Part shown: piece after piece, positions 1 to 53,445 of the stretch | Layout: each line of letters begins with the position of its first letter | How positions within the stretch are numbered: position 1 is the first letter of the stretch | Source: Candidatus Bathyarchaeota archaeon | GTDB taxonomy: Archaea; Thermoproteota; Bathyarchaeia; Bathyarchaeales; Bathycorpusculaceae | NCBI GenBank assembly: GCA_963811105.1 | Contig: CAWEPZ010000013.1 | Span: 160,001-224,000, forward strand | Direction: 5' to 3' | Length of the DNA stretch: 64,000 nucleotides | Program-made: the position numbers and the translations under genes | The notes under the pieces: generated by a model | Databases searched by the model: none | Seen by the model: the letters and a program-made list of their open reading frames with translations, nothing else | Told to the model about the DNA's origin: nothing

Positions 1-3000
1 TCCTGTTCTCGCCACAACAAAAGAACATGAGGTGTAGTATACAGACCCCAGATGAAATACTGAAGCCGTAAGAGAATAGAAACAGGCAAAAAAACAGTAA
101 ATTGAGCCACATAGACTTTTCGTCGGCATGCAGGCGAGAAAAGACGGTGTTGCTTGTTGTGTAGCTCCACAAGAAAGCGCTGTTTGTGGCATCTAAACAA
201 TAAATCTTGCCATCCCCTGAGCCTAGTAGACTTTTCTGTCGGCGACTGCGGGAGAAGAGCGAACTGGACTGCCTGTTGTATAACTCCAGATAAAGGCGCC
301 AGAATTAGCATCTAAACAGTAAACCTTTTTGTCCGTTGAGCCTACGTAGACTTTTCCGTTTACAACTGCAGGAGAAGAATCAACAGTGTTGCCTGTTGTG
401 TAACTCCAGATAAAGGCACCAGTGGCGGCGTTTAGAGCATAAACTTTATCGTCAACTGAGCCTACGTAGACTTTTCCGTAGGCAACTGCAGGAGAAGAGT
501 AGACATAGTTGCCTGTTGTGTAGCTCCATATGAAGGCAACAGAATTAGCATCCAAACAGTAAACCTTGTTGTCGTAGGAACTCACGTAGACTTTGCCATC
601 TAGCGATCGCTGGAGAAGAACGGATAGAGTCGCCTGTTGTGTAACTCCATATGAAGGCACCGTTGATTGCATTCAGACAGTAGACTTTGTTGTCCCATGA
701 TCGAACGTAGACTTTACCGTCGGCAACAGCAGGAGAAGACCGAAATCCAGTTGCCTGTTGTGTAACTACATATGAAAGCGCCAGAATTAGCATCCAAACA
801 GTAAACCTTGTTGTCGTAGGAACCTACGTAGACTTTGCCATCTGCGATCGCAGGAGAAGACAAACCGCTCCGCCTGTTGTGTAACTCCAGAGGAGCGCAC
901 AGAAGTGGCATTCAAACAATAAACATTATTGTCGTTAGATCCCACGTATAGTTTGCCTTTGACAACTGCAGACGAAGAACCATAAGTGTTGCCTGTTGTG
1001 TACATCCATAGGGTGCTGTTGGTGTTTGGCGCTGTAGAGGTGGAGTAAGCGGTATGCTGCAGGTCATGGCGAAACATCGACCAGTAGTCGCTCGAGGCGG
1101 TCGAACTCAAAGTGAACTGTCCAACCCCCGAGTTTTCTCTGGCGAGCTTTACAACGATATAGAATTGCCCTGAAAGGGAAGGAGTATAGGTTATGTTCTC
1201 GAAGCCTCCGGTCGTGGCGGTTGTGCTTTTAGCAACTATAACGGGTTCACCGTAAGCGTTTCCTGTCGTATTGTAAAGGTACAGGTCGTAGTCCGCACCA
1301 GATGGAACACTAAGCGAAAAATTGTATTGAGCGCCCAGCAGCAAGCTGAACGTACCTAGCCCAAGCAAGTCTCTGACCTAGAACAGCTATATTCGTTAAG
1401 GTCGGCGGATTGCCCAAGCTCTCAGAAACGACAGTTCCGATCTGATACGATTTCAGAACAGCTTCCGCCGCTGCATCAACGTTCAGACGCCCATACTCTT
1501 CATGCACATCTTTCCCTCCACGATCAAGAGTTGGACTATAAGCTGAAGAGGGTTCTCGGAGATTCGGATAGGTCTCGGTAGCGGTCATCAAAAGAATAGT
1601 TTTGGGCATAAGAGCTCGGCTTCGAGTGTAGCTCCATGCGTTGTATCCCCCCATAGCTTGAACGATTATTTGTTCAGCACTCGCCACCATTGGCGCGGCC
1701 ATAGATGTTCCCTGCATTGGAGCTGAATCATTAACTTGAATTTCAGTGAATCCTCCTTCTGCATCGTTAGTGTTTGAGTCTGCACTAAAAAGCGGTACAC
1801 CTAAGAAGCTGCCTCCTGGAGCAGTAATATCAGGCTTTACCGTGTAACCTGTGCTATGTGAAGTTCCGCCTTGGCCGCTATAACTGGCTATAGAATCGAA
1901 TTGGTTCATCGCCGCACTGTGGTAACCTCATCAACTGAACCAGGCGTGTAAATGTAATTGCCGCCTGACCCGCTGTTACCTGCTGATACGACGGTAGCTA
2001 CTCCACTGTTTACGAGGTTGACCACGGCTGAGTCCATTGATGATTGTTCACTAGTGGAGCTTATGCTCATGCTGGCCACGGTTATATGGTAAGCAATTCT
2101 GTTCGCTATAACCCAGTTGATGCCGCTAATAAGTTGCGCACTTGTTCCTGAGCCTGCGTTATTAAGAACTTTGACTCCGACGAGTTTAGATTGGGGTGAC
2201 ATTCCAGTCCATGCTGAAAAGCCATCCGCTGGGGGCGTGTACGGCCAAGACATGTTAAACGCGACGTAGAGATTTCCCGTTCCAGATGTTACGTTTACTT
2301 CAGGGTGGTACATATCATAGCCGCCCGTTGGAGTCGAGGGTACAGTGTAAGTTAGGGTGTACCATGTGTTGGGATTGTTCGTGTTCACGCTAGCTACTTG
2401 CACTCCACGAGCCGGTGATGGTTTTGTCGCTATAATATAGCGGTATTGCATTGAGTCTTGCTGTACCTGTACTTGACCATTTCACACTTAGATTTATGTT
2501 GCCTGTCTTATTCACCATCATGCCCGTAATTAGCCAAGCTACCCGTAGGGGTTCCACAAGATTGGCACCCCAAGTGGCGATGGCGTTGCCAGAAGAGTCT
2601 TACTGAAGAAACCATCCCCTGCTGCAAGTGCCAGCAGTATGTGACCCGTGACCGTTATCATCAACCGGAGAAGTTGTGAATGTTACTTGGTCGTTCCACC
2701 CGACTATCTTTTTTTGGAAGTTTTGATCTCCGTAACCAGGCGCAAAATCAGGGTGCGACCCATCTATTCCTGTATCCAGTATTGCAATTGTCGAGTTTTT
2801 GTCTCCTTGAAGTCCCAGATTGTTCCATACATATGTTCTCGCGCCCACTTGTTTTGTTGCATACGCCAGACTGCTAGTGAAGTTTGCCCCTTTTTCAATC
2901 AGTAGCAGATCTGGGCACTGCTCGGCGAAAGCAGTTATTTCATTGTAGGGTATTCGGCCGCCAAATCCGTAGAGCGCGTAAGTCCAAGGTGTTGTGGTTA

Positions 3001-3322
3001 AGGTTCCACCGTTTGAGGCGAATGTGTTCGTGTCGCTTGCTGTTGGTTGGGTTTTTAGCATAACTATTACATCTACGTATTCTTGAGACAGATCGTCTGT
3101 GCTTCTTCGTGTGATAATTTCCTGATCTAGGTTGTCTGCGATTCCGTTATGGTTGGTGTCAATGTTTGGAGGAATGTTCATGGTCGGAATAAAATTTGGC
3201 GCAGAATCAACAATATCTGAAGAAGATAGGTTAGAAGTTGAGTCTGAGAAGACATTCTGAATTGGAAAAATAGTCAATAGAAGGATTCCCAAAATTAGCG
3301 ATACTATTAATTTTCGTATCAA
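1..3322 (-). CDS. Secreted S8 subtilisin-like protease with PPC-like domain, PQQ-type (BamB-like) propeller repeats and a Gly-rich C-terminal module; split by many frameshifts, runs off window start
   Basis: Signal peptide MIRKLIVSLILGILLL; catalytic motifs ILDTGID, HGSHTAG, VVSAGN, GTSMAAP; DYDLYLY PPC-like motif; repeated SSPAVADGKVYVGSxDxKVYCLDA. ORFs 2600-3322, 1906-2451, 1310-1909, 787-1368, 714-911, 545-793 and 223-672 join across 1-nt shifts. Confidence 0.85.
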
Positions 3323-7032: not shown

Positions 7033-8562
7033 TTACAATGTTGGATCGTATAAGTAAATTGCGATTTCTCCGCTGTGATAAACTTCTTTAAATAAGGATG
7101 ATACTGTTGGTTGTCCGTACCAGCCTGTTCCATTTACCCACCAAATCAGGTATATTTTGCCTTGCTCTTGTTGAGTAACAATCTTTGCTGCATTTACGGG
7201 GTTATCATATTCATAAAGAATAATTTGAGTGACATTTGCTGTTAACATTGCCCAGCCATAGAAAGCTCGGTGTGTGAGCAGAAGTGCGCTACTATCTACG
7301 CTATTCTTGAACCATTGCAGAGTGTTAACAGTGTCGGCGCAATCGGTCTTGGGTACAGTGTTCTGGAGCATTGAAGACGGGATCTGATAAATGTAGCTAT
7401 TGACGGGCTGGCCAAAGTAGGGAAAAGGGTTTTCCGGCGGCATCAACATAAAACCCAAACTTAAAACTGAAACCATCAAAACCAAGTAAATTATGCCAAT
7501 TCGGCGTAAATTGAAGCTGAGACGCTTCCAAGAGACAGATTTGAGCCGACTCAGAGTCTCAATGGTACAAAACGCCAAAGGATATGTGAGCATTAATACC
7601 CAGCGAAGATTGCTCGGGCTAACCATCGGAACAAACAACAGAATTAAACTCACTAAGATCCAACTTCTTAGCTGAAAATTCTTAAGACGCCAAATACCCC
7701 ATAGCAAGAAGGGTAAAAGAGGCAAGAAACAATAAAAAAAGAAACCCGTTTCGCTAAAAAGCATTGCCGGGTAAGATGAAAAACCAAAAAGAGCAAGCCA
7801 CCCATCATTGGCGTTAGAAAAACCGAATATTAAACGGAACTCCGATACCGAAGTAAACAAAAAAAGTACCGCCAAGAAAAGCAGCACTGCGGGCAAAACA
7901 GCTAAGACCAAACGAATAGATTTTGCCTGCTCTTTTCGAAGCAACTTATAACCGATCGTAAACGCAAACACGCCCAACATAATGATGGATACAAGTTGAT
8001 GCGATAAAATCACAGCCACCATCGACAAAGAAATTAAGGCATAAAGTTTCCGTGAATACCCATGACGCTCGCCTATGCTATACAGAGTCAAAACTACAAA
8101 AAAGAACACGAAACCAAGCATATTTCTAAGCGAATCCATCGAAACCCGTAAAGCTACAAAATACAAAGTTCCCAAAAGTGCCACAGCAACACTTTTCTTA
8201 GGCGACCACCCTAAACCTTTCTGAGCATACCCGTAAATCGACAAGCCTAAAAATCCTTCAAACGCCACTGAAACGACTTTAAGAACCATTATGAGAGAAC
8301 CGCCGAATGAAACCAACGAAATAATTATTGAATAGAACAAAGGTGCAGTCCCGATAAAACTTAGAAAAGCCACGTTTCCTTTTAGCAACAGTAGAGTGGT
8401 AGGTACATAATGACCCATTGTGTCGAACCCGACGGGGTAAGGCCCCATCAAGACTTCAGGAACGGCTCTCAGCAAGAGGGGAACGACGAATGCGAGGAAA
8501 GGAAACACATTTCTTCTTGAAAACAGACGGCGAATTCTTCCCGATTTTTCTGAACTAATCAT
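7033..8562 (-). CDS. Multi-pass membrane protein, probable GT-C-fold glycosyltransferase
   Basis: About 12 hydrophobic segments; first loop YPVGFDTMGHY; soluble C-terminal domain. Confidence 0.55.
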   Translation of the reverse strand: MISSEKSGRIRRLFSRRNVFPFLAFVVPLLLRAVPEVLMGPYPVGFDTMGHYVPTTLLLLKGNVAFLSFIGTAPLFYSIIISLVSFGGSLIMVLKVVSVAFEGFLGLSIYGYAQKGLGWSPKKSVAVALLGTLYFVALRVSMDSLRNMLGFVFFFVVLTLYSIGERHGYSRKLYALISLSMVAVILSHQLVSIIMLGVFAFTIGYKLLRKEQAKSIRLVLAVLPAVLLFLAVLFLFTSVSEFRLIFGFSNANDGWLALFGFSSYPAMLFSETGFFFYCFLPLLPFLLWGIWRLKNFQLRSWILVSLILLFVPMVSPSNLRWVLMLTYPLAFCTIETLSRLKSVSWKRLSFNLRRIGIIYLVLMVSVLSLGFMLMPPENPFPYFGQPVNSYIYQIPSSMLQNTVPKTDCADTVNTLQWFKNSVDSSALLLTHRAFYGWAMLTANVTQIILYEYDNPVNAAKIVTQQEQGKIYLIWWVNGTGWYGQPTVSSLFKEVYHSGEIAIYLYDPTL

Positions 8563-8635
8563 TCAGTTGGTCCTCAGCAACTTGCTTGACAAAAAATTGA
8601 GTGGAGGAAGCAAAAAAGAGAGACATCCACCTTTC

Positions 8636-10187
8636 TTAACTATTTTCGAGACTGCCAACGCCGATATGCGCTAAATGAAATTGCGGTACTCTAAAAGACC
8701 GCACGTAAAATCGAGACAAAACACCGGATTTTCCTATTTTTTCTCTTATAAAACTAATTATGGGTAGAATAAAGCGAGTGAAGCCAACAATGATGAGTAC
8801 CGTGATAAATACTATGACATACCAACTTGACAGTTGATCTGAAAGAGTGGGACCAGCTGAGGTACTTGGAGTTGGCGTGGAGCTCGTCGTAGGAATCAGC
8901 GTGGGAGAAGCTGTTGGGCTACCCGAAGCAGGAGTAGGCGTAGGTGTTGAGGTAGGGTTGCCGGGTGCAGGGGTAGAAGTTGGGGTAGGAGTTGGAGTGG
9001 GACTTTGTAAGTTGCTAATTGCATATTGCGCTGCTTCAATTATCATTCCATTGGTTTTGTCAATGTCGGTTGTGACAACGCGTCCGTTCTCATCGATACC
9101 GTCAGAGTATCCGCTTGATGGATTAGGTAGATGAGACTCAACATACGAAACCATATTTTCAGTAAAAGGAGTATCATGCATCGCAAGCAAACCAACTGCA
9201 GATTTGAAATAAATAATTGGTGTGATTCCAACTTTGTCCTTGTTCACATTCTCTATGGTCCAAGTTGAACCGTCCTCCTTTACAATCCACTCGTAAACAT
9301 ATGAAGGATTGTCCAAACCTGTATTTCCTTCGCTAAAGGCTGCAAACTTGCCTGTAGTTGTTGTATCTAGCTTCATGAGCGAAATACACTTGCTCAGCCA
9401 AACCATTCAGCTTACCATTAGGGGCAAGATTAAAAACAGAAAGAAGCAAAGGTTCACACATTAATTTTGAAGTAGGTAGCGTTACGCCATAGGTGGAAAT
9501 AGTAGGTGCTGACACAATATTGTTTAATATTGAGCTAGCCAAAGTTGAGAACCGGCTTGGCCAAAAACCGGCGAAGGCACTTGCAACATAGTAATCATAG
9601 AGGTTCTTTGAATTTGTTAGAGCGTCAATTGCCTGTTCCAACGGAGCATAGTTAGTTCGATTATACACAATGGAGTTGATGGTCTCTGCCAATTCAGGCC
9701 TAAAAACTCTCAGATTGTTAAGAGCTGCCAGCAACTCTCCAGCATCGGCAGCGTTTTGCTGGTCAGCGACATATGGATTCCCATTAGCAGATTGGTACCA
9801 TTCATAAGGCAAGCCATTAGATGCAAGCTGACGAATTTGAAGGAACGTCAATATCTTGTTGAATCTCGCATCCGCTCCCCAAGTGCCACCTGCGCTTAAA
9901 ATTCCTAGACGGTTAACAGCGATTATTGATTGAATGTAAACTCCCAAATCCCAATCGGTAAAATAAGGATAACCCAAACCAGCACCGTGGAGCCCCGTTA
10001 TGGAATCTACCGCAACCCCAGGCTGGAAATATTTCCAGGCGTTATTCGCCAAACGTAACCAATATGCCTGATCAACCACCAAACTATTTTGTTGACCTTC
10101 GGTTATGGGTACCAACGATTGAGTGATCCCGGACAGAAACATAAAGATGAGTAAAACCGCAACAACGTGCTTCGCTTTAACTTTCAT
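8636..10187 (-). CDS. Secreted DUF3131-like glycoside hydrolase/transglycosylase with Pro/Thr/Ser linker and TM anchor (frameshift near 9358)
   Basis: AWKYFQ...TGL...FTDWDLGVYIQSIIAV..LGIL and LPYxWY motifs; PTPTPTPT linker; hydrophobic WYVIVFITVLIIVGF. Confidence 0.65.
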
Positions 10188-10456
10188 AGATAAACCCTCG
10201 GTACACCAGACAAAAGGTTAGAAACCGTGAAGCGCAAGATAAATCTTTTTGGAAGCCTCTGCATTTATTCATTATATGCTTGCAAGGAGCACAATGGCAA
10301 CACGGTGGTGGTAAGTAACTTGGATATTTTTGTATTGGCCTTCTCTGGCCGGATACATCTGGCTGGTTCTAATGCATCAAAAGCTACTTTTGAGGGCTAA
10401 ATCTAAAACAGTTTTACCAAAATCCTTTTTTGGTTTCTTTTGCATAGTACGCAACA

Positions 10457-11602
10457 GTGGAGTGTCTAAAAATAAAAATTGTCTTCGTCACCAATTATCC
10501 ACCAAGACGTGGCAGATTATCCGAGTATGCTCTTAACTTAATAGATGAGCTCCAAAAATGTCCCAGCGTGAGCCACATTGACATAATCACTGAAGTATCT
10601 TCTAATGAAGTTACTCGAATAAGTGACAAAGTAACTCTGCATCCGGTATGGAAATCAGACAGCCCCTTATCATTCATTTTAATTCTTAAAAAAATAATTG
10701 CCCTTAAACCCGACATAGTTCATTTTAATATACACATGGCAGTTTTCGGGCAGTCTAGAATATCCAACTTCGTAGGGCTTTCCTTGCCCTTCCTGTCCAT
10801 GATAATAGGTTTTAAGACTATTGTCACCATGCACAACTTTGTTGATAAAATTGACATAAAGAAAACGGGTTTCAAGGACACTTTTATCAATAGATTAAGC
10901 GCTTTCTTGGTCACTAAACTAATCGCATCGAGTTCAGCCGTCACTTTAACCATGAAATCCCACACTGATTTTTTCAACAAAAGATATCACTGCAAAAAGG
11001 CAGTAACAATTCCGCATGGAACCTGGAATAACAGTTCCTATACCCAAGAGCAGGTTTGCGAGAAGGACTCGATATTATACATAGGACATTCAGGACCGTC
11101 CAAAGACATAAATCTACTTTTTGATACGTTCAACATTCTTGAGAGAAAACATCGAGGATTAAAACTAATTGTTGCAGGAACGTCCCACCCGAACCACCCA
11201 CATTATCTCGATAAATATAGAAAAAACGCAGATAACGTATTTTTCACTGGATACGTTCCTGAGGATCAACTTCAAGCTCTATTTGAAAAAGCAAACGCTG
11301 TCATTCTTCCCTACCACACATGCACTGGTACAAGCGGAATTGCCCATTTAGCAAGTTCCTTTGGCACACCAATAGTGGCAACAGATCTTCCCGAATTCAG
11401 AGAACTGACGAAAGAAGGATGCGGTTTATTAGTTAGTGCACATAACCCGCAAGCTTTAGCTTCAAGAGTTGAAGAAATCATCGATAATCCTCGCCTTGCA
11501 CTTGAATTAAAAGAACGCAACATTACTTTCGCCGCTTCAAGATCATGGAACATCGTTGCGGAGCACTTTTGCTCCTTATATGAAGAATTGTTGGGAAGGT
11601 AG
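10457..11602 (+). CDS. Glycosyltransferase family 4
   Basis: YPPRRG, IPHG, GYVPE, ILPY...SGIAHLASSFGTPIVATD GT-B motifs. Confidence 0.9.
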   Translation: MECLKIKIVFVTNYPPRRGRLSEYALNLIDELQKCPSVSHIDIITEVSSNEVTRISDKVTLHPVWKSDSPLSFILILKKIIALKPDIVHFNIHMAVFGQSRISNFVGLSLPFLSMIIGFKTIVTMHNFVDKIDIKKTGFKDTFINRLSAFLVTKLIASSSAVTLTMKSHTDFFNKRYHCKKAVTIPHGTWNNSSYTQEQVCEKDSILYIGHSGPSKDINLLFDTFNILERKHRGLKLIVAGTSHPNHPHYLDKYRKNADNVFFTGYVPEDQLQALFEKANAVILPYHTCTGTSGIAHLASSFGTPIVATDLPEFRELTKEGCGLLVSAHNPQALASRVEEIIDNPRLALELKERNITFAASRSWNIVAEHFCSLYEELLGR

Positions 11603-11903
11603 AAGAATCAAGGTATTCTTAGTTGCTCCTGAAGATCAACCTGTAATCATAGGTGGTGGGGGAATCGTCTGAAAACTTATCCGGGCAAAAGGGGAAGTTG
11701 GTCGCTCATCAATTAGCGCTTAAATTCCTTACTTAAGTTACTTGCCAAAATTGTTTGCTGATTGTGGGAACCACAATAAAGCGTTAACTAACTTATGTTT
11801 CAGGGTTTGGAACTAAAATTTTACTCTTTTGTAAGTATTGCTGCTAAGCGAATTGAAGAGGTTATCGTGTTTGATTAAGACAGGTTTTGAGTTTGTCACA
11901 AAT

Positions 11904-12081
11904 ATGGATGGCGTTAAGTTGTTCCGAAAACCTAAATGGGTTTTATTTTTTCTTTTTTTTGTTTTTTTGATCTTAGTCACGTCTTTAGCAAAGGCTTCCT
12001 CAACAACCAATGAAACCGGGCGGAGCATATTACGACGGGGTACGTTTGAACGCTCAGCTCACAGTTTGGGGAATTACTTAG
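11904..12081 (+). pseudogene. Signal peptide joined directly to the last strand pair of the propeller (internally deleted gene or mini-ORF)
   Basis: MDGVKLFRKPKWVLFFLFFVFLILVTSLAKASSTTNET then, after one extra G, GGAYYDGVRLNAQLTVWGIT* (12019-12081). Confidence 0.65.
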
Positions 12082-12371
12082 AAAGACCTAACCGCCCCCG
12101 CAAATTAGTTTGGCAATCAAGGCTGAATATTAAAATGTGATTGTAGGCACCAGGATTCTTAAATTAAATCACAGGAAATACCTAAAGAGGCAACGGGAGG
12201 GGATCCTAGCCCCATTCTACCAGTAAAAAGTTGATGAAAGTGAGCCCTGATCGGACTTACCGAAAATAGTCTGAGCCCCGTCTCTAACATTTTAATATTT
12301 ACCTGAACATTTTGTAGGAAAGGCAGCAAAGAGTCAACTATATACTTTGCTAAAGTGTTCGTTGTCTGACT

Positions 12372-14171
12372 CTATTGCTTTTTTTCTTCAAGGGCTTTTT
12401 GGTCGAGATAGTATTTTCCGTTGATTTCCACGAACATTTTTGTTTGTTCTTTTCGTCTTTCCATGATTCTTACAAATATTCGTGACAAACCCAGTTCTTT
12501 AGCTGTCATTGCAGTTTGGGGGCTAATGGCTCCCTTCTCTTGGAATTTCTGGATAATTTGCTGGATTTTCTCATCTCTCCAGCCTTGCGGCTCTGTTGTT
12601 CCTTGTTGGCTTGGTGGAGGAGGAGGAACTGGAGCAATGGTCGGCGCAGATTGCATTGGGGCTTGAGTCTTTTGTGTTTCTATAGTTTCAACGGTAGTTG
12701 TTTTGCCTTGGTTGTCAGGTCCACTTCCACTGCTGTCTACTTCGGTTGCTTGAGAGGATGTTGGGTTCAGTTTTATGACAACTTCAGTTTTGTTTTTCAC
12801 TGAAACAGAGATCGGTGTTGAAGCAATGTATCCTGTGGCGGTGGCTTTTATTGTGTAATCGCCGTCTTTGAAGTCTTTGAAAACAGTTTGTCCCTTGTTA
12901 TTAGTGGCGCCTGATAGATCTTGTTGACCGCTGGCGAAGACAGCTGCTCTATAAATCGGCGATTGCGTTTGAGAGTTTTGCACTGTCGCTGTGAATTTGC
13001 GTTGGCGACTAAGCCATATAAGGATTATGATGATTAGCAATATGATGATGATTATGACTATGATGATCCAGATAATTGAGCCAAAATCAAATGAACCTGG
13101 GTTTGTATTTGGTGTTGCAGATGTGGTTGAGGCACCCGATATGACCGACACGGTGTTGTCTCCGCCTTCTGCGCCGCAAGTAACATATATTGCACCATTG
13201 CCTGAGTCACAGGTTATTGTCCATGGTAAGTGCCCCACAGTTATGGTTTCAACCAATTTGTTTGTGCTGTCTGATATTGCAACGACTTTGTTGTTTTGAT
13301 GAAGGGCTACGAATATTTCGCCTCGAGAGGGATCGTAAGCTACCCCTTCAACTTGCACTTCATGATTCAAGTTCGAAATTGTTGCAACAATTGCATTGGT
13401 GCTATCAGAAATAACGGAAACAACGGTATCGCTTGTACCCGTACCAGTAGGTACGAATATTTCGCCTTTTGCAGAATCGTAGGCTAAAAATGAAGGACCG
13501 CCCGGCAGACGCAATGTTGCAACTACCGCGTTGGTATTATCAGATATAACTGAGAGAGAGTAGTTCTTTGAGTCAGTTTCAAAATTGGCTACGAATATCT
13601 CGCTTTTGCCAGAATCGTAGGCGATACTAAAAGGTTCGACTCCTACGGGTATTGTTGCTATCACAGTGTTTGTGCTGTCTGAAATTACTGAGACGGTGTT
13701 GTCGTAAGAATTAGTTACAAATAATTCGCCCTTTGCGGAATCATAAACTATGTTGTAAGGGGATTGTCCTACGGGTATAGTTGCTACCACGGTGTTTGTG
13801 CTATCGGATATAACTGATACAGAGTTGCCATGCAAATTCACTACGAATATCTCGCCCTTGGCAGAGTCATAAGCTACACCATAGGGGTAAGATCCTACGG
13901 GTATAGTTTCAACCACCGTGTTAGTACTGTCGGATATAACTGAAATTGTGTTGTCTTGACCATTAGTTACGAATATCTCGCCTTTGGCAGAATCATAAGC
14001 TACGCCCATTGGAGCTTTTCCAACAGGTATCGTTGCGGTTACTCCCAGGGCATTAGCCATGTTGACTGTTGATAAAATAAAAATTGCAATGAATAATAAA
14101 ACAAGAAGTTTCCTAACTTTGAGCTTCCATAGACATTTCTCTTTCCTTCCTTCTGAATCGGGTAGTTTCAA
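12372..14171 (-). CDS. YVTN/YncE beta-propeller surface protein with TM helix, carboxypeptidase-regulatory-like domain and small C-terminal domain
   Basis: Repeats PVGxxPxGVAYDSAKGEIFVxN...VSVISDSTNTVVATI; poly-Ile TM segment; GxTNNKG...GDYTIKATATGY. Confidence 0.85.
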   Translation of the reverse strand: MKLPDSEGRKEKCLWKLKVRKLLVLLFIAIFILSTVNMANALGVTATIPVGKAPMGVAYDSAKGEIFVTNGQDNTISVISDSTNTVVETIPVGSYPYGVAYDSAKGEIFVVNLHGNSVSVISDSTNTVVATIPVGQSPYNIVYDSAKGELFVTNSYDNTVSVISDSTNTVIATIPVGVEPFSIAYDSGKSEIFVANFETDSKNYSLSVISDNTNAVVATLRLPGGPSFLAYDSAKGEIFVPTGTGTSDTVVSVISDSTNAIVATISNLNHEVQVEGVAYDPSRGEIFVALHQNNKVVAISDSTNKLVETITVGHLPWTITCDSGNGAIYVTCGAEGGDNTVSVISGASTTSATPNTNPGSFDFGSIIWIIIVIIIIILLIIIILIWLSRQRKFTATVQNSQTQSPIYRAAVFASGQQDLSGATNNKGQTVFKDFKDGDYTIKATATGYIASTPISVSVKNKTEVVIKLNPTSSQATEVDSSGSGPDNQGKTTTVETIETQKTQAPMQSAPTIAPVPPPPPSQQGTTEPQGWRDEKIQQIIQKFQEKGAISPQTAMTAKELGLSRIFVRIMERRKEQTKMFVEINGKYYLDQKALEEKKQ

Positions 14172-14669
14172 AGTGGATTTAAGGCTTTTGTTTGCTCGCT
14201 TGAGATACTCGTCAATGAGTTAATTCTGTATGAGAATATCTACAAGCCGGCAACTGCCTGCAACCTAATTATCTCAGCGACAAAACGCACGATCCTAATC
14301 GTGGGGATCTAACCTACAATCTGTTTTAGCAAGGATCCTGGTACAGATTTTAAAACAACAGACAAATAAACCGTAATTACAGTTATTTAACCATATTGAC
14401 CTCAAAAACAGCTCTAGCTGGTAAAATGGCGTCGAGGTGGATTCTAGCCCCAATTTAATAGTAAAATTGTTTTTTCAGCCATCACAAACATGCCCGTACA
14501 AACCAGCCCAGGGTTCAAATCCCGAAGGCCACAAGTTGTCTGGGACCACTTTTGCTCTCTTCTTGGAATCTAAAAGTATTGCCGACTTCTTGATGAGTCT
14601 GAGTATTGATTATGACATAAGTTTGAGAATTCACAATACTTATAGTCATTTCACTTGCCATTCTAACTC

Positions 14670-17371
14670 ATGAGCAAAAGAAATGCTCGCCGAGAAGCAA
14701 AACCTCAAGCAATTGAGACAGCTTCTCCTGTAATGATCAATTCAGCAGCGCTTGACAAAGAGAATCCCCTGCATATTTTACACGTTGATGATGATGCGAG
14801 TCATCTTGAAATCACGAAACAAATACTCTCAGATGAGAACAATTTTGAGATTGAAAGTGCCACATCTGTTGATGAAGCCTTCAAAAAAATGGAGAAGCAA
14901 ACTTTTGATGCGGTTGTTTCCGACTACGAAATGCCTATTAAAAATGGCTTGGAATTTCTAAAAGAACTCCGAACGCAAAAAATGGACATTCCTTTTATTT
15001 TGTTTACAGGAAAAGGCAGGGAAGACGTTGCAGTTAAAGCTTTGAATTTAGGCGCTGACAACTACATTAACAAAAACGGTTCTCCAGAAACAGTCTACTG
15101 CGAATTGGCAGATGCCATAAACAAGACTGTGGAACGCAAGAAATCAATAAAACTGCTTGCTAACTCAGAGGCAAAATATCGTACACTAGTTGAGAATTCA
15201 CTTCAAGGAATATCAATTCTGCAAGCAACTCCGCTCAGGCTGATTTTTGCCAACGAAGCTATGGGAAAACTTTTGGGCTATTCTTCTCAAGAGTTAATGT
15301 CGCTTTCGCAAGAAGGAATTATAGGTTTGGTTTATCATGAGGACAGAGCCGTTTTCTTTGGACGAATGGAAAACCGTTTGCGGGGTGAACCAGCGGGAGC
15401 GCCCTACGAGTTTCGTGGAGTACGAAAGGACGGCTCGATAATATGGATGAGTGCACTCGCTAATCGAGTTGATTATGAAGGGCAACCTGCAGTCCAGGGC
15501 ATGTTCTTAGATATTAACGAACGCAAAAAAGCCGAAGACTCTTTGAAAGAAAGTGAAGAAAAATTCAGGACTCTATCCGAAGAATTGCCGAATATGATCT
15601 TCATAAACAAGCGAGGTAAAGTAGTTTATGCCAACAAGAAATGCGAAGAAATTACTGGATACACAAAAGAAGAGCTGTATTCTCCCAACTTCAACTTCCT
15701 TTCTCTGTGCGCACCGGAATATGTTGACGTAATGAGGTCGTCTTATACTAGACATATGAAAAACGAATCTGTTCCTTCGTACGAGTTCTCGCTCGTCACC
15801 CGAGATAATAAGAGAGTTGAGGCAATAATCACCACAAATTGATGGATTACGAGGGAGAAAAGGCTATCCTTGGAATAGTAACTGACATTACTGAACGCAA
15901 AAAAAATGAGGCGACCCTACGAGAGAGCGAAGAGCAGTTCAGGCAGTTATTTTCTAGTATGCCCAGTGGAGTAGCCATTTACGAGGCGATTGATAATGGA
16001 GAAGATTTTGTGTTCAGGGATTTCAACACTGCGGCAGAGGAGATTGAGAAAAAAAGCAAAGATAATGTTCTTGGCAAACGCGTGACCCAAGTGTTTGCAG
16101 GCGTCAAGAGCTGTGGCATTTTTGATGTTTTTCAGCGCGTTTGGCGAACTGGCCACCCAGAATACTATCCAGTTGCACTCTACAAAGACGACAATAAGCC
16201 GGGTACCTGGCGCGAGAATTGGGTTTACAAACTGCCAAACGGAAATATCATAGCAATATACAACGACATTACCGATCGCAAGAAAGCCGAGGAAAATGTT
16301 AGAAAAAGTGAGGAGCGGTACCGAGAGCTTGCAAACTCTGTGCCGGAGATGGTTTTTGAATGTGACTTGACTGGAAAGATTACCTACATTAGCCAACGTG
16401 CTATCGATTTCACAGGCTTCACCAATGAGGAGCTTTTTGGAAAGAACATGTTGGATTTCCTCGTTCCAGAAGATCGAAAAAGAGCCATAGAGAATATGAA
16501 GAGATCTTTTGCTGGCGAAAATCTAGGCAGCACTGAGTATTCACTTTTCAGGAAAGATGGCACATTCTATCCTACGTTGGTACGCACCTCTCGAATAATT
16601 TCTCAAAACAAAGTAGTGGGTCTTAGAGGACTGGTCATTGAAATAACTGAGCGCAAGAAAGCCGAAAAAGCCTTGCAAGAAAGCCAGATCCACTACCAAC
16701 TATTGGCCGAACGTGAACATGTGACTAACGAAAAGTTGAATGTAATTAGCAAGTTGACAAGGCATGACGTCCGAAACAAATTATCATCGGTCAAAGCAAA
16801 CGTTTACTTGCTTAGAAAGCGGGGTGGTGCTAATTCTGAAATAGCCAATTACATCGCCGCAATCGAACAGTCGGTAGAGCAGACAGAATCTCTCTTAGAA
16901 TTTAGCCGGATCTACGAACAAATAGGTACTGAGCAACTAAAGACTGTGGATGTAGAGGAGTGTTTTAATGAAGCTACGTCTTTCTTTCCAGACCTGAAAA
17001 ACGTGAAGGTTACAAACGATTGCCATGGGTTAAATGTGTTGGCTGACTCGTTGTTGAGGCAGCTCTTATACAATTTTATTGACAATTCAATGAAACATGG
17101 AGAAAAAATTTCTCAAATACGAGTCTACTATAGGAAAGAAGGCAACGAAGCTAAGTTGGTCTATGAGGATGACGGAGTAGGCATATCATCTGCTAACAAG
17201 TCCAGGACTTTTAGTGAAGGTTTTACAACAGGTAAGGGTACCGGCCATGGTCTATACCTTGTAAAGAGGATGATGGAAGTATATGGTTGGAAGATAGAAG
17301 AAGCTGGCGAGGAAGGAAAAGGAGTAAAATTTGTTATAACAATTCCTGAGACAAAGTTAGCTAAACCCTAA
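14670..17371 (+). CDS. Hybrid receiver-PAS(x4)-histidine kinase (frameshift near 15840)
   Basis: ILHVDDD, SDYEMP, FTGKGRE receiver motifs; DITERKKAE PAS ends; RHDVRN H-box; N-box, DDGVG, GTGHGLY. Confidence 0.9.
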
Positions 17372-25257: not shown

Positions 25258-25710
25258 GTCTACCATAAGCATTGTGTGACTCATTCCGAACCCACAGCCG
25301 AAACGATTCTGACCAATTAATTTCGTCGGTAAGAGCAGTAGAAGGGGGATCCTAGCACCATTTTTCCAGTAAAAATTAATTGCGAGCAAGTCCGCTGGTT
25401 TGCGCTCAATACATTTAACAAGTCCTCATTTTTCGATGGAGTAAAAGAATGGCGGGCTCGCTGTAATTTGAACATAGACTCACTGGCGATGTTTACGAAA
25501 ACAATCGCCATTCTTCTTTCTACACACCCACTTTTCCTTTTTTTGAGCATTCTTTTCCCAAGCTCCAACCGAAACCTCTTTTGAGAGCTGTTGGTGCTTT
25601 TCCAAATATTTCTTCAATTGCCGATAAAAAGCTACAGGAAATGGAGAAACTAAAGTTAAAAATGTTCTTTAATGTTTCAGGTATGTTAGTTTTGAAGGTC
25701 GAAGTAAAGC

Positions 25711-32324: not shown

Positions 32325-32810
32325 TTAGATCATGCCCCAGACGGTTAGTTGGCTATTTAGGCGTGTTCCATCATAGAATGTTCCGCCGGCAACTATTTCA
32401 GTTGAAGAGTCACCATTCACGTCAACCACGCTTAGTGAGTTGATTGTCGTGTTGCCTGTCCAGTACCAGGTTTTGACATTTTCAAAAGCAATGCTTGAGC
32501 CTGACCAGATTTTCAGTTGGGCAACATCGCGTGAGCCGTCGTTGTATTGACCACCGGTTACTAATTCGGGTTGTCCATCACTGTCCACGTCGCCTATCGC
32601 AACAGATTTGATTGCCGTATTGCCTGCCCAGTACCAACCCGCCAGTCTATCCATTGTTAAATTTGAACCGATCCACTCCACGAGTTGTGCATTGTTGCGT
32701 GATCATCAAAGTATGACCCCACAGTAACAACTTCGCTTTGCCCATCACCGTCAACGTCGCCTAACGCAACAGAGTTGATCACCGTGTTACCTGTCCAGTA
32801 CCAAGTGGTG
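32325..32810 (-). pseudogene. Orphan C-terminal three blades of the propeller
   Basis: TTWYWTGNTVINSVALGDVDGDG...NSQLTVWGMI*; no start or signal peptide. Confidence 0.8.
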
Positions 32811-32925
32811 AAGGATTAGTGGACGTATTCGTCAATATGAACTATCGATACATGATACGTGTTTCATTTAACACCAGAAAGCATTTAAGCCTAATCAAAC
32901 GATATAAAAATGAGGTGATTTTTGC

Positions 32926-33537: not shown

Positions 33538-36418
33538 CTATTTTGTATTATGACTATAATTTTGGGTAATGCCCCAAACGGTGAGTTGAGCATTCCAGCG
33601 AGCCCCGTCATTATGTTCGCCGCCCGTAACTATCTCCGTGGAAAAGTCTCCGTTAACATCTCCAACAACAACCGAGTTTATAGTAGTGTCACCCGTCCAG
33701 AACCAGGTCTGGATGTTCCAGACTGATAGGTTTGATCCAGTCCAGACAACCAGCTGTGAATTCTCGAGTGCTCCGTCAAAATAGTATCCGCCAGTAACAA
33801 CCTCCATCTGGCCGTCGGCGTCAACGTCGCCTATATCAATCGAGCTTATGGCGGTGTCGCCTGTCCAGTACCAACCCGTAAGCCTGTCCACAGCCAAACC
33901 AGAGCCTGTCCACGCCACTAGCTGAGCTACATTTCTTGCGCCATCATTGTAATATCCCCCCTGTCGTTATCTCTATTAGGCTGTCGTTGTCAATGTCGCC
34001 AACGGCAACTGAGTTTATGGTTGTGTTGTTGATCCAGTACCAGGTTGTTAGGCGGTCAACTGCCAGATTTTGCCCCTCCCACTCGACCAGTTGGGCTACG
34101 TTGCGTGATCCGTCAAAGTATGATCCGCCTGTAACAACCTCCACTTGGCCATCATCATCGGCGTCGCCTAGTGCAACAGAATGTATGTAGGTGTTGCCGG
34201 TCCAATACCAAGCTGTTAGCCGATCTACCGTCAAGTTGGACCCAGCCCACACAACCAGCTGAGCCACATCCCTAGAGCCGTCAAAGAAGGAGCCGCCCGT
34301 AACAATTTCTGTTTGCCCGTCGCCGTCAACATCCCCAACGACCACAGAATTGATAGACGTATCGCCATGCCAGTACCAACTAGTGAGTCGTTTAACCACC
34401 AAGCTTGAGCCTGCCCAAACAATCAGCTGAGCCACACTTCTTGTGCCGTCAAAGTATGATCCGCCAGTAACAATCTCCACCTGCCCATCACCGTCAACAT
34501 CACCCAACGCAACAGAATTAATAGTGGTGTTTCCTGTCCAGTACCAAGTCGTGAGCCGCTTGACTGCTAAATTGGTGCTGTTCCAAACTGCGAGTTGGGC
34601 CACAGTGCGAGTGCCGTCGTAGTAGTATCCGCCGGTAACTATCTCGTTTTGCTTGTCGTCGTCAACGTTGCCTGACGCGAGAGAGTTTATGGTTGTGTGG
34701 GAAGTCCAGTACCATGCGGTTACCTTGTCTAATTTTAGACTTTCATGTGCGGTAACCCAATCATTCAACTCAAGCAGTTTCGCATCTTTCTCGGCATAGG
34801 GGAATGCGAAATCATCAATTGCCGGAGACAGATTCCAAAGTAGTGCCCCTGCGCCGCCTGCCTCTAATGTTAGGTTGAGATACTCAGCAATGCCTATGCT
34901 TGTGTTGTGAGTCGGATACTCTTCCAGACACCAAGGCTTTCCCGCCGGTATTAATGGAACATAATCAGACAAATTGCCCATCGATGGATACAGATGGAAA
35001 GCAAAATAATCTAGATTCAATTCCTCTACCAGAGACATGAACTTGATGGACACTCCAACCGTGACTAACTTGCCGGGTGCATATGTCCGAATTGCATTGA
35101 TGCAATCATCTATGAATGTGCGCCAAGGTTCAATAGGCACGTAATCATCTGCTCTTGTTTCTGTGTCAGCGTGTTCCCAGTCACCACCAGCATTTTGACT
35201 CAATATCCACTCAGGCTCATTCATTACATCAAACCCTATAAGAGCAGGGTTATCTCCAAACTCCTCCAAGAAAGGTCTCAAAAACTCATTCAAAAAACCT
35301 GTTTTCAAGGTTTCATTTGTGATTATCCCGCTCCTACCTCTAAGCCAAACTCCTTCAACAATCTCAGCCTTTCCAGCTATCAGGAAATCGACCAGCGTAA
35401 ACTCCACCTTAATGCCTTCTTCACATGCTATGTCCAAAAACGTTTTAACATCTTCACGGAATTTATCATTGTATCCAATCACATGACCTTCTTTATCGAA
35501 CATAGTTCTGCCGTCTGCCAACAATTCCACACGAATTACCTTTGCGCCAGCCCGCCGGAAATTGTCAAAATTTGCCCTTACAAAATTTGGATGCCTGGAC
35601 ACACCGTTTCCCCAAACAAACCAATCCGTCACGCCAAAACTCTGCCCATATGGCAATCCTCGAAAGTTGCCGCCTACCATAAACCATTTTTCGTTGTTCA
35701 AATAGAAACCGTCGCTTTCCGCAGAGATTACATCTCCAGTGGCGAATCTAGGTACAGGTGATGATTCCGGAAGCGGCGGTGGCTGGGTAAGTTCAAATGC
35801 AGGACTCACAGTTAGGTTGGTCACTTGTAGCTGACCGCTAAACCTTGCAAGGGAACCATTTCCAATAGCAAATTTGACTCCAATAATGATTATTTTTTCC
35901 GGGTCAAAACTGGAGGTTGCTTCGACGTGAGGCGTTAATGTCGCCTCAAATTTTCCGCTTTGATCTACATTAACCCATGTTCCATATTGTGACGTCCATT
36001 TGGTGTCGTTTTCTTTGGCGAATACTTGTAAACCGTTAAGTTTGCCTTGTTCTCCGACGAAACCAATCGGTACTTCTGCTTCCACCGTAATTGTTCTTTG
36101 GCTCATGTCGATTGGAACTTGATCTTCTAGACCGGGAAAATATCGTAGGTCAAGCCACACTTCACCTTTCTCGAGATTGCTATCATTTCCTATTAGATTA
36201 GCTGTCAAAATTAGTTTTCCCGCTTCCCAATGCACTGCGGTGATTCCTTGACTGTCAAAATAGTCTTGAGGTTGCCAATCCGCATTATTGCTTATTAGCG
36301 ATTGATTTGTATTTGTCTCGTCGGCTCTCACGTATTTAACTTGGTAGACTCCTTGGAAAAATGTTCCAAGTAACGCTAACAGTAATATTAGCGTTGTGAG
36401 TTTGTAGAGCTTTTTCAT
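33538..36418 (-). CDS. Secreted CBM-like domain, GH5-like (clan GH-A) hydrolase, C-terminal 7-blade propeller (frameshift in G run near 33958)
   Basis: Signal peptide; VMNEPEW acid/base, FHLY, LEEYP nucleophile; 7 repeats at about 33571-34714. Confidence 0.82.
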
Positions 36419-36509
36419 GAAATCGCTCCATTGTCTTGCCCGAATGCATCAACCTTAATCTCGCTTCGAGACGTGCGCATCTCCGCTTTCCTCCTTTTCA
36501 AAGCCTAAA

Positions 36510-38821
36510 CTATACTGTTTGTTTCATGCCCCAAACTACTATTTGGGCGCTCCATCGCAATTCGTCATAATATGCTCCGCCAGTCACTATTTCAGCTGAG
36601 AAGTCACTATTAATGTCGCTTAGACATACGGAGTTTATGAGAGTATCGCTGACCCAGTACCACGTTCGCATATACTCAGGAGCTAGGCTGGAACCGCTCC
36701 AAACAACCAACTGAGCTACGTTACGCGTTCCGTCATAAAAGTATCCCCCCGTAACGATCTCTACTCGGCCATAACCGTCCACATCGCCCACAGCCACCGA
36801 ATTGATGACTGTGTTGCCTGTCCAATACCAGTATGTAAACCGATCCACTGTCAAGTTGGACCCAGCCCACACAACCAGCTGAGCCACATCCCTAGAGCCG
36901 TCAAAGAAGGAGCCGCCCGTAACAATTTCTGTTTGCCCGTCGCCGTCAACATCACCGACAGCTACAGAATTGATAGACGTATCGCCATGCCAGTACCAAC
37001 TAGTAAGCCGTTTAACCACCAAGCTTGAGCCAGTCCAAACGACCAGCTGAGCAACACTTCTTGTGCCGTCAAAGTATGATCCGCCAGTAACAATCTCTAC
37101 CTGACCGTCAGCCTCAACGTCGCCTATGGCCACGGAGTTAATTACCGTCTTGCCAGTCCAATACCACGAGAGTACCCTTATTGGCGGCGCTAACGTAGCC
37201 CCATTCCACACCACAAGTTGGGCTACGTTCCTTATGCCGTCAAAATAGTATCCGCCAGTAACAATCTCCACCTGACCATCAGCGTCAACGTCGCCTATGG
37301 CTACAGAGTTTATTACCGTATTACTATTCCAATACCATGTCCTTAATCTTTTGACCGCCAAATTCGATCCAGACCAAACAACCAACTGAGCCACATTGCG
37401 CACCCCGTCGTAGTATGTTCCGCCTGTGACGATTTCGGTTTGCCGTCTCCGTCTACGTCACCTAATGCCACAGAGTTTATGGTGGTGTTTCCAACCCAGT
37501 ACCACGTGATCGACCGTTCAGGTATTAAAGAAGAGCTATTCCAAACAACCAGTTGAGCCACATTTCGAGTGCCGTCATAGAAAGCTCCGCCTGTCAAGGT
37601 TTCTTCTTGACCATCACCATCAACGTCACCGACAGCGACACTGTTAATGGTTGTGTTGGAGGTCCAATGCCACGTCGTGACGTTTAAGACTGACAGAGTT
37701 GGATTCCAAGGACTAATTAACGGATAATGGTCTACATTATTCGCGTCAATTACGTAGGGCGTGTCGCCAATTCCATCAAGATTTATATCATTTCCTTTGT
37801 AGTCGCTCCAATAGTTACCTTCTTCGCCTTTATCCCATGAATTGTTGGTACCACTAGATTCTACTTGCTTTGTGTTGTTTTGGAAGTTGTTGCGATATAA
37901 ATGCATATTTAATGTTTGGTAGACAGAGACGCCCTGCAAATTCCTTACTATATTGTTTGCAATTATACTGCTGTTACTAGAGGAGGGATAAAAATAGATG
38001 CCTGCTCCACCGTTGCTTGTCAAATTATTTCCGATTATCTTGTCGTTAGAAGAACGAAGATAAAGGCCTGATCCACTGTTGTTTGTAATGTTGTTTCTAG
38101 CGATAGTGTTATTTTCACCACCTTCAATCCAGATCCCAATGTTGTTGTTTGCTACGAAATTCTCAATGATAGTATCATTCAAGCCTCTCCAATAAAGTTC
38201 AAGGCCATACCCGTTGTTAATAATGCTATTTTCAGAAATCGTTCCATTCCAAAAATCATCAAGAAAGAGACCATAACTATTGTTTGTTACACTGTTACCA
38301 AAAATGCTATTCTGGCTTGTAGAGTCAGAGTTGACACCACAAACATTATTCATGATATTGTTCTTAGAAATTATGTTATTATTAGAATGCCATAAGAGAT
38401 TAACGCCATTTGTGTTGTTCAATATGTTGTTTTCAGTTATCGTGTTGTGACCAGTAATAATATCGGATTGGAGAAGGATGCCATTTAGGAATGTTTTGAT
38501 TGTCATATCCCTGACTGTTACGTTACTTTGTCCAGTAAGATTGATACCTGTTCCTGTTCCATTTCCCTGAAGCGTGTGGTTTCCGCCGTCAACCACGATG
38601 TTGCTTCGCTGAACCACAATCGGTGGATTATTTATGTCAGCTGTGAATGTGTAATAGGCGTTTCCAACATTGGAAATTGGTGCGTCTGGTGGGTCAATTG
38701 AACCGTCGGGTCTGATGTAGATTGTTCCAGCTGCCCTTGCTGGGTAAATTTCAAACACGCCTATTATCGCGTTTGCCGACAGAAGCGTCAGGATGGCCAC
38801 AGCAAGAAGTCTCTTCTCCAT
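36510..38821 (-). CDS. Secreted NosD/CASH right-handed beta-helix plus C-terminal 7-blade propeller (frameshift near 37440)
   Basis: IYIRPDGSIDP, Asn-rich NNxxGI repeats, GNYWSDY...GIGDTPY...DHYPL; 7 repeats. Confidence 0.85.
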
Positions 38822-38959
38822 TTCTCCTTCCTTCGGTCGTCTGATATATTATAGCTGGATTCTGCAGATAAAACTTGTGGAAGAATCAACTGTCAGCCTT
38901 CGGGGCCGTGCCAACTTATACCGAGCAGTCTCAAACGATTTATTTTGCGAATTAAAGCT

Positions 38960-39419
38960 GAGAAAGATAGCAATTCAAGGGTTCTTCCGCTATCAGAGAA
39001 AGTATTGACATGATTGCTAAACTTTCCAAGAACAGAAACACTCAGAGAAAAGAACAGCTGTTTGCTAACGCTGACGACGTGAGAACATGCTTTTTCCTGC
39101 AAAATAGACGAATAGCTAAACGCCAAGCCAACAGGAACACGATGAAAATTCACTTTCACACTTTCAGGCATTGGAAAGCAAATACTGAGCAGCATAAAAC
39201 TTAGGATCCCTGGCACGTGAAGATGATTCTTGGCCATAAAAGGTCAGGTCAACGGAAACTTACATACAACTTGAAGAAATGCTATATGATGGTCAAGATT
39301 ACGATAACTTTACTGTTAAAGTCGCTGACACAATCGACGAAGCAATAAGACTAATGGAAGCTGGCTTTGAGTACCACGCTGAAGCCGAAGGACACAAACT
39401 GTTTAGAAAAAGAAAATAG
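38960..39419 (+). pseudogene. Tyrosine recombinase/integrase C-terminal remnant
   Basis: IHFHTFRHWKA, in-frame stop, VKMILGHK, STETYIQL, EAGFEY...KLFRKRK*. Confidence 0.85.
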
Positions 39420-39662: not shown

Positions 39663-40035
39663 TTACCAAGCCCAAACGCACAACTGAGCAACTGTGCGAG
39701 TGCTATCCCAGTAGTCGCCTCCTGTTAATATTTCGTTCTTACCGTTAGCATCCACATCCCCAACCGTCACAGAATTAATGTATGTGTCACTAGACCAGTA
39801 CCAGGTTTTGACGTTTTTTAGTGCCAGTGTTGCGCCGTCCCAAACACACAATTGAGCAACGTTCCGAGCGCCATCATTATAGGTGCCACCTGTTATTATT
39901 TCGTTTTTGCCGTCAGTATCCACATCCCCAATACCGACAGAATTAATGAATGTGTGGCTTATCCAGTACCAGGCTTTAACATTTTTCAGCGTTAGCGTTG
40001 CACCATCCCAAACACACAACTGAGCACAATCCCGC
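39663..40035 (-). pseudogene. Orphan C-terminal two blades of the LCVW-type propeller
   Basis: AQLCVWDGATLTLKNVKAWYW...AQLCVWAW*; begins abruptly, no start or signal peptide. Confidence 0.8.
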
Positions 40036-51477: not shown

Positions 51478-51670
51478 TCAACTTATCGAGTGGAATGGCG
51501 CTAACTTAGCAGTTGATAGACTCACCAGCTGGTACTGATATAATCGCACAGTGATTAATTCTGTTAACGTAGCTGATGTTGTTGGTAGCACCCAAGCCAA
51601 GGTTGTTAATGGCCGATATTTACACGATGGCACACGCAACAGTGCTCAACTTACCGTCTATAGCATGATC
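51478..51670 (+). pseudogene. Degraded propeller blades
   Basis: QLIEWNGANLAVDRLTSWY* then VINSVNVADV...HDGTRNSAQLTVYSMI. Confidence 0.7.
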
Positions 51671-52005
51671 CGAGGTCAAAAATTGCAGTCAAAACACGGC
51701 AATCACATAAATATTATCCCTTTTCTATTGATCTTTTGTTTATGAATGTATATGGTTAAACCTGTACACTATAACGTGGAATCCTTTCAACAGGGGTAGT
51801 ACTTACGCGAGCTCTTAACTATGGCATCAAGTCTGTCAATGTTAAGAAAATTCCGGAAGTAACGTGGAACATTTCAGAAGACCTGACCAAATATACGAGA
51901 ATTTGCTGAGCACGACAAGTTAATAAATATCACCCAAAAAAGCTATCTCTAAAAAAAGAAAAACAAAAATTGGGCGTCAAAAGTGAGCCCAAGACTTGGA
52001 AGTTT

Positions 52006-53272: not shown

Positions 53273-53445
53273 AGTAAAAGCTCCAGATTAACTTTATGAA
53301 TAATAAATCACTAATTATAGAGATATTTAATAAATTGTGACTGTAAATAGACAACAACAAATAATTTCGGAAATATTTCTCGCGTTTTTGCGCAAAACTT
53401 AAAAGCATATTCATTAGAACAAATTATTTAAAGAAGGTCTTCTTT
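53273..53445. promoter_or_regulatory. Probable divergent promoter region between the two stand-alone propeller genes
   Basis: AT-rich spacer with TATA-like TTTAATAA (near 53326) and TTAAAAG (near 53399). Confidence 0.45.

Follow-up and report, generated by a model that had tools for sequence, protein, structure and literature searches.

The window, by which is meant the whole stretch of 64,000 nucleotides analysed from a Candidatus Bathyarchaeota archaeon, contains a short interval bounded by the end of a glycosyltransferase gene at 11602 and the end of a minus-strand YVTN surface-protein gene at 12372, in which the 3' ends of two different genes stand one behind the other. The features of this interval, together with the gene on its left, are listed below.

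10457-11602: glycosyltransferase gene
11603-11682, plus strand: 3' flank of the glycosyltransferase gene, the last stretch syntenic with the metagenome contig L031
11827-11939, plus strand: degraded 3' terminus of a gene for a tyrosine integrase, some 37 codons long and preceded by a frameshift, ending in LIKTGFEFVTNMDGVKLFRKPK and then TGG at 11937-11939
11904-12140, plus strand: fortuitous open frame of 78 codons, composed of the integrase tail, read-through of the T-runs and the out-of-frame propeller tail
11941-11968, plus strand: oligo-T runs T4, T6, T8 and T7, directly behind the former integrase stop
12016-12081, plus strand: 3' tail of an FG-GAP propeller gene, (P)GGAYYDGVRLNAQLTVWGIT and the stop TAG at 12079-12081, limited to the two final strands of the terminal blade
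12018-12020, plus strand: GGG run, in the frame of the tail a part of CCG GGC (compare ACG GGC in paralogs)
12199-12230, plus strand: genus-wide 32-nt motif, GGGGATCCTAGCCCC and a TATA-like A/T part, a feature of the neighbourhood and not a part of the scraps

Frame 1 from the ATG at 11904 begins with MDGVKLFRKPKWVLFFLFFVFLILVTSLAKASSTTNETGRS (likewise MDGVKLFRKPKWVLFFLFFVFLILVTSLAKASSTTNETGRSILRRG) and is closed by a stop at 12138-12140, and frame 2 over 12010-12081 reads MKPGGAYYDGVRLNAQLTVWGIT followed by a stop. The upstream frame and the blade frame are offset by one base, and when GGGC at 12018-12021 is taken as a single step, the two frames are joined into an ORF of 58 residues. The original prediction had described the letters, both frames and this ORF in the same terms, as frame translation confirmed; it had regarded the whole as an "empty" propeller gene, in which a signal peptide is joined directly to the terminal strand pair. 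No Pfam match was obtained for the 78-codon frame at 11904-12140 or for the frame-joined form of 58 residues, and the segments 11683-11826, 11966-12015 and 12082-12193 gave no matches. The Rfam search over 10000-15000 (E up to 1) returned a sole match, which is sub-threshold, attributable to chance and located inside the YVTN gene, and ARAGORN found no tRNA in the window.

The first of the two pieces is the end of an integrase gene. A weak match of 49 nt connects window 11883-11931 with the very end of a 304-residue ORF in the relative G015, which terminates in GFEFVTEMDGVKLFRKRK (likewise LIEQGFEFVTEMDGVKLFRKRK) before its stop and is assigned to the Phage_integrase family (Pfam PF00589, E 1.5e-20). 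In tblastn, window 11871-11936 shares 82% identity with the last 22 residues of this integrase and 68% identity with the integrase tail of G121, whose full-length frame of 369 residues ends in GFEFVCDMEGVKLFRKSK, then TAG, then GTTTTTTTCTTCTATTTTTAG. The blastn alignment with G121 amounts to 76% over 95 nt and runs across the stop into a T-rich flank, with TGG at 11937-11939 aligned opposite the TAG stop of the G121 integrase. Moreover, a longer local DNA alignment over 11827-11965, which reveals a further, frameshifted integrase piece upstream, scored 108 against 29.9 ± 5.1 (maximum 54) in 200 shuffles. The segment 11827-11965 therefore descends from the tyrosine recombinase family. It is not a functional member of that family (PF00589), since only the last 22 to 37 or so codons, which follow the catalytic domain, are present, and tblastn with two full-length integrases found nothing else in 11400-12100.

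This tail is a recurrent element of the genus. Ten other copies or fragments of it (..GFEYV.E.DG.KLFRKRK) were located in the genome, with a stop directly after ..K.K in eight, and five other genus genomes match it at 76-80%. Integrase-tail matches were obtained in G127, G089 and G048; the tail was the sole part of this integrase query to find a match in G127 and G089, and the stop has been lost in G127 as well. Other copies of the integrase family in the genome adjoin tRNA-like 3' ends.

With the integrase tail identified, each portion of the supposed signal peptide can be assigned. The ATG at 11904 corresponds to a Met that is conserved in the interior of the integrase tail (..V-T-N-M-D-G-V-K-L-F-R-K-P-K), and the basic "n-region", starting MDGVKLFRKPK, is its conserved C-terminal end (KLFRK.K). 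Behind the former stop follow T4 at 11941-11944, T6 at 11946-11951, T8 at 11953-11960 and T7 at 11962-11968, which are read in frame 1 as Phe, Leu and Val codons and yield the "hydrophobic core" VLFFLFFVFL; these runs align with the T-rich sequence that follows the integrase stop in G121. Oligo-dT is described as a termination signal for archaeal RNA polymerase in PMC2253867, and the T-runs at 11941-11968 would presumably act as the terminator of the integrase. If they do so, any mRNA of the proposed ORF would need to cross four such signals within its own coding region. Judged by its letters alone, the frame-1 peptide is indeed arranged like a signal peptide, in n-, h- and c-regions (ATG, basic start, a hydrophobic stretch of 17 residues and AKA), and its descent from an integrase tail and terminator-like DNA argues that this appearance is accidental. 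What had been taken for a signal peptide joined to the terminal strands is accordingly an integrase tail with a lost stop and an oligo-T flank. The following residues, SSTTNET, had been counted as part of the same gene and show no significant homology to the propeller family or to the leader of the FG-GAP protein encoded on L031; for "LAKASSTTNET" against that leader, "LAKSNNSATSS", the DNA alignment scored 25 versus 22.1 ± 3.5 in shuffles. A small hydrophobic ORF, possibly homologous to the T-tract of the window, also lies behind the G015 integrase, and the alignment between the two is of low complexity.

The second piece belongs to a different family. Genes for propellers of the FG-GAP (integrin-alpha) type (Pfam PF01839 and PF13517) occupy 29-64 kb of the window, and a true 3' tail of this family is present in the 20 codons at 12019-12078 and the stop at 12079-12081. 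When the 23-residue peptide was searched by tblastn against the whole 3.49-Mb genome, the terminal blades of paralogs ranked first, and the internal blades (R.VAQLVVW) scored below them. The top terminal-blade matches, GGTFYDGTRLNSQLTVWGMT and GGAFNDGTRLNSQLTVWGMT, each followed by a stop, and GGAYHDGTRLSAQLTVWGV, come from three intact paralogs with identities of 75-79% and E values of 3e-7 to 1.6e-6; for the last 20 residues, the genome-wide identity to the family terminal blade is 75% (E 3e-7). In the alignment, the stop has the same position as that of paralogs ending in WGMT and a stop. A blade profile built from the genes of the cluster, which recorded 80 blade matches in the 3.49-Mb genome (72 on this contig), gave one partial match at 12019-12072, corresponding to profile positions 32-49 of 56 (i-Evalue 5e-5, six-frame genome). 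Descent from the propeller family, as already proposed in the original prediction, is thus upheld by tblastn, the blade profile and the stop position.

About one third of one blade is retained at 12016-12081. This does not amount to a functional propeller, as one partial blade stands against seven consecutive blade matches in the intact paralogs; nor does the tail possess a leader and start of its own in frame with the blade, since the integrase tail and the T-runs are found upstream with an offset of one base. The best nucleotide match to the tail is window 33566-33626 on the minus strand, with 78.7% over 61 nt and no common flank. In DNA searches of 40 relatives and 120 genus genomes, no match to the tail region occurred among the matches listed.

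The original prediction had attributed the separation of the two frames to one extra G. This is one possible description of the offset, and the insertion is superfluous: paralogs read ACG GGC GGA GCA (T G G A) at this point, and the window in the tail's own frame reads CCG GGC GGA GCA. CCG GGC in the window aligns with ACG GGC in the paralogs, and no inserted G is therefore required. On the letters as they stand, an offset would arise only when the tail is forced onto the upstream frame. The integrase tail and the propeller tail were never one gene, and hence they lie in different frames.

The junction was further examined with short public contigs from two studies (four runs), which were placed on 10400-14300 and can miss rare variants. 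X1 record 3 agrees with the window over the whole of 11996-12146, with neither a difference nor a gap, and X4 record 28, which comes from a different study, spans 11857-12072 gap-free and departs from it in 1 letter. X2 record 11 (11885-12100) has 1 difference and a one-letter gap somewhere within that range, and together with X4 record 28 it is one of two contigs that each bridge the integrase tail and the propeller tail. X3 record 20 (12017-12202, 19 differences) starts within 7 letters of its own end and is uninformative on the upstream sequence. For X1, which may be the sample of origin and hence not independent, the T-runs at 11939-11974 were flagged as a skipped repeat. The number of Gs at the junction, which had been put forward as a point to check, agrees with the assembly: GGG at 12018-12020 is covered gap-free in contigs of two studies (X1 record 3 and X4 record 28), which makes an assembly error there unlikely.

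These data bear directly on the proposal that a real small secreted protein is encoded here, produced by a +1 slip at CCGGGC or as a product of 78 residues and acting on the folding or closure of a propeller. Such a protein would make use of the ATG, the basic start, the hydrophobic stretch of 17 residues and AKA of frame 1, a single four-letter step would provide it with a 58-residue ORF ending in the closing strands of the family, and the near constancy of the sequence in contigs from two studies would fit it. However, its ATG is an internal integrase Met, its hydrophobic part is aligned terminator-like DNA with four oligo-T runs inside the would-be coding region, and the 3' part of frame 1 (GRSILRRGTFERSAHS and onward) is out-of-frame propeller DNA. 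The frames are offset, no Pfam match exists, and the tail region is unmatched among the matches listed for the 120 genus genomes. We regard a small protein of this kind as very improbable. The strand-exchanging secreted peptide of the original prediction is likewise unsupported, as the frames remain out of phase in the contigs of both studies, four T-runs lie inside the would-be coding region, and no counterpart of the tail was seen among the matches listed for the 120 genomes.

The same place in a relative could be examined on the metagenome contig L031, the only syntenic relative found. Its glycosyltransferase is 86% identical in protein, and blastn aligns window 10211-11682 with L031 4189-5677 at 82.5% nucleotide identity over 1499 columns, the homology ending at 11682. 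The upstream genes at window 7054-10064 match L031 as well, and the left-hand synteny extends over 7054-11682. Downstream of the glycosyltransferase and on the same strand, L031 carries a winged-helix gene (PF14947, E 3.5e-15) and then an ORF of 1250 residues or more, which opens with a hydrophobic leader and has FG-GAP blades towards its C-terminus; the contig breaks off inside blade 5, short of the 3' end of this ORF. The tail in the window is likely to be the remnant of an ortholog of this FG-GAP gene. For the first 1000 or so residues of the L031 protein, the present genome offers no counterpart and the 120 genus genomes no close ortholog; matches there reach at best 53-57% over a repeated domain. 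The region L031:6500-10249 thus encodes a lineage-specific surface protein, large and secreted, in which a repeated module of about 100 residues is combined with an FG-GAP propeller at the C-terminus.

Glycosyltransferase homologs in a different gene context occur in G109 and G057, and they are probably orthologs of a paralog on the same contig. Among the assembled relatives, only the YVTN gene has orthologs (82% in G023 and 77% in G009), and these have unrelated flanks. The original prediction had named an ordinary full-length gene in relatives among the findings that would speak against its exotic readings, and an ordinary secreted FG-GAP gene is what L031 holds at this place.

Taken together, it is highly probable that the two unrelated gene ends in tandem are a scar left by a mobile element and by deletion, in other words a product of ordinary genome decay. 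The identity of both pieces and the position of the lost stop are established at the level of sequence comparison, and the order and number of the events can be proposed as follows. An integrative element bearing an integrase would have entered the variable interval, either within a large propeller gene on the same strand or next to it, and one or more deletions would then have removed the body of the element and nearly the whole propeller gene. The residue would comprise the last 37 or so codons of the integrase with their T-rich flank and, some 50 bases further on, the last 21 or so codons of the propeller gene with their native stop. A point change would have converted the integrase stop to TGG, and translation from the internal integrase Met would run into the T-runs and give the basic start, the hydrophobic core and "AKA". 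In this respect the "deletion scar" offered among the options of the original prediction is broadly right for the propeller tail, given the full-length FG-GAP gene of L031 behind the same glycosyltransferase, and wrong as to a join between signal peptide and strands. The stretch 11904-12081 is presumably not expressed, no function is implied, and nothing in it is awaiting cassettes.

The locus represents a familiar type of pseudogene scar and functionally belongs neither to the FG-GAP family nor to the integrases, though it descends from both. Like other insertion/deletion scars with solitary integrase fragments, it retains of the tyrosine integrase a short 3' segment, frameshifted and lacking the catalytic domain, beside a host gene truncated at its 5' end, in a non-syntenic interval between conserved genes; similar solitary integrase tails are found in G127 and G089. 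Nothing substantial sets it apart from such scars, the sole oddity being that stop loss and the oligo-T flank create a string resembling a signal peptide. Compared with FG-GAP/integrin-alpha-type seven-bladed beta-propellers (PF01839, PF13517), GGAYYDGVRLNAQLTVWGIT matches the end of the terminal blade and the stop position, whereas a fragment of about one third of a blade, which is joined to no other blade and lacks both a start and a leader of its own, is unable to form a propeller fold.

The wider cluster was surveyed with the blade profile and six-frame reading, which led to a map of decay. Besides the tail discussed here, three 5'-truncated remnants that keep their 3' end and one further integrase remnant were recognized.

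32328-32815, minus strand: 5'-truncated remnant with its 3' end kept, about 3 blades, frameshifted
38971-39416, plus strand: second integrase remnant, in two frames, ending in GFEYHAEAEGHKLFRKRK before a stop
39666-40034, minus strand: 5'-truncated remnant with its 3' end kept, about 2.3 blades of the "QLCVW" subtype
51539-51742, plus strand: 5'-truncated remnant with its 3' end kept, less than 1 blade, stops upstream

The integrase remnant at 38971-39416 (plus) and the propeller remnant at 39666-40034 (minus) lie tail to tail, 250 nt apart. This neighbourhood is one of the points that would favour a somewhat different origin of the locus, in which an element integrated at the 3' end of a propeller gene while carrying its own 3' copy, the original tail was displaced and a later deletion followed; other elements use the 3' ends of tRNA genes or of protein-coding genes in this way. 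Displaced 3' gene ends are a familiar feature of prophage and element attachment sites, as exemplified by element e14 of E. coli, which has a 3' fragment of icd at its far end, and the present locus resembles them in having a short 3' tail of a protein gene beside the end of an integrase gene. The integrase 3' end and the propeller tail are on the same strand and about 80 nt apart, one deletion would suffice instead of two, and other integrases of the family in the genome adjoin tRNA-like 3' ends, as integrating elements do. Nevertheless, the e14/icd arrangement is lacking in three respects, namely a near-identical second tail, an intact target gene and an intact element. No partner att copy was found in the genome, where the best paralogous tail reaches 78.7% over 61 nt with a flank that is not common to both; the second pair is convergent and not tandem, so that the two pairs do not share one geometry; FG-GAP sequence is absent from the surroundings of the related integrases in G015, G121, G127, G089 and G048; and the truncated remnants begin at different blade phases. 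An attachment-site duplicate is accordingly judged unlikely.

The phases of truncation are relevant to yet another proposal, according to which the locus would be a germline-like incomplete acceptor that is filled by copying neighbouring blades, comparable to the assembly of lamprey VLR genes. In its favour, a family of about 12 propeller genes is found within 60 kb together with several fragments that look silent, and blades appear by inspection to have been homogenised between some of the genes. The truncation points, however, differ in blade phase (profile position 32 at this tail and position 9 at 51542), which argues against site-specific cassette junctions; the fragments are decayed, contain stops and share no common junction phase. 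The acceptor itself has no genuine 5' gene part and its pieces are out of phase, and the relative L031 has an ordinary gene here. Among the contigs of the four runs at this locus, in which rare variants can be missed, only the unfilled form and no blade-filled variant was seen. The likeness to lamprey VLR germline genes is superficial, consisting in a leader-like string close to the 3' end of a repeat-protein gene with related repeats nearby, whereas here the leader is derived from an integrase, the parts are out of frame, the search for donor cassettes with a fixed junction yielded none and no assembled variants occur in the contigs. An acceptor of this type can be given hardly any credence, and the unfilled shell awaiting cassettes that the original prediction had envisaged, with no genuine 5' part, out-of-phase pieces, remnants of differing phase and no filled form in the contigs, gains no support.

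A broader version of the decay reading was also considered, in which the cluster is turned over by integrase-bearing elements that repeatedly strike or replace propeller genes, leaving four 5'-truncated footprints in these 64 kb, of which two lie no more than 250 nt from an integrase remnant, and in which stop loss at the present locus has generated a proto-gene with an accidental leader, one base-slip away from the closing strands. In this full form the idea is very unlikely to hold. The reading as a plain scar of element and deletion carries a correction of more general use: a Lys/Arg-rich protein tail, an archaeal oligo-T terminator and a lost stop can in combination imitate a signal peptide, and a family match of 20 codons beside such a mimic invites exotic readings. 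Meanwhile, it shows an FG-GAP surface-protein cluster that evolves by gene birth and death with integrase remnants interspersed, large secreted propeller genes being present in one lineage and missing in the next.

Several further observations were made along the window. Seven-bladed genes at 33541-36448, 36513-38848 and 52009-53287, all on the minus strand and otherwise complete, are each broken in the assembled sequence by a single frameshift inside a blade. According to the ORF listing alone, a subtilisin-like protease at 787-3322 (minus strand) is apparently split into four overlapping ORFs. A gene at 8636-10187 (minus strand) is split in two here and forms one frame of 701 residues in L031; these two split genes suggest that frameshifts are numerous in the window. 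The propeller protein at 55087-57261 (minus strand) contains three exact tandem copies of an N-terminal module of about 96 residues and two identical blade pairs, which are signs of very recent internal duplication.

The 32-nt motif to the right of the scar, consisting of GGGGATCCTAGCCCC and an A/T-rich, TATA-like part that includes ATTTTACCAGTAAAAAG, occurs 7 times in the genome when up to 8 mismatches are allowed, versus 0 times in a reversed-genome control, at the following positions.

Window: 12199-12230, 14437-14468 and 25345-25376
Contig C11: 153754, 568302 and 974429
Contig C2: 429030

Four of the seven copies are located 200-340 nt upstream of plus-strand genes, and the motif recurs in many genus genomes, where several copies often share one orientation at distances of 1-10 kb. 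The motif may represent a promoter, an operator or a 5'-leader element. An interpretation as a tRNA-derived att remnant was rejected, as no copy lies near any of the 37 tRNA genes that ARAGORN detected in the genome. In addition, about 150 nt behind the YVTN stop (12218-12371) are conserved at 75-84% with the flank of a paralog at C11:537372-537533, and also in G078 and G074; this conserved flank could be a 3' UTR or a small antisense unit that starts at the 32-nt motif.
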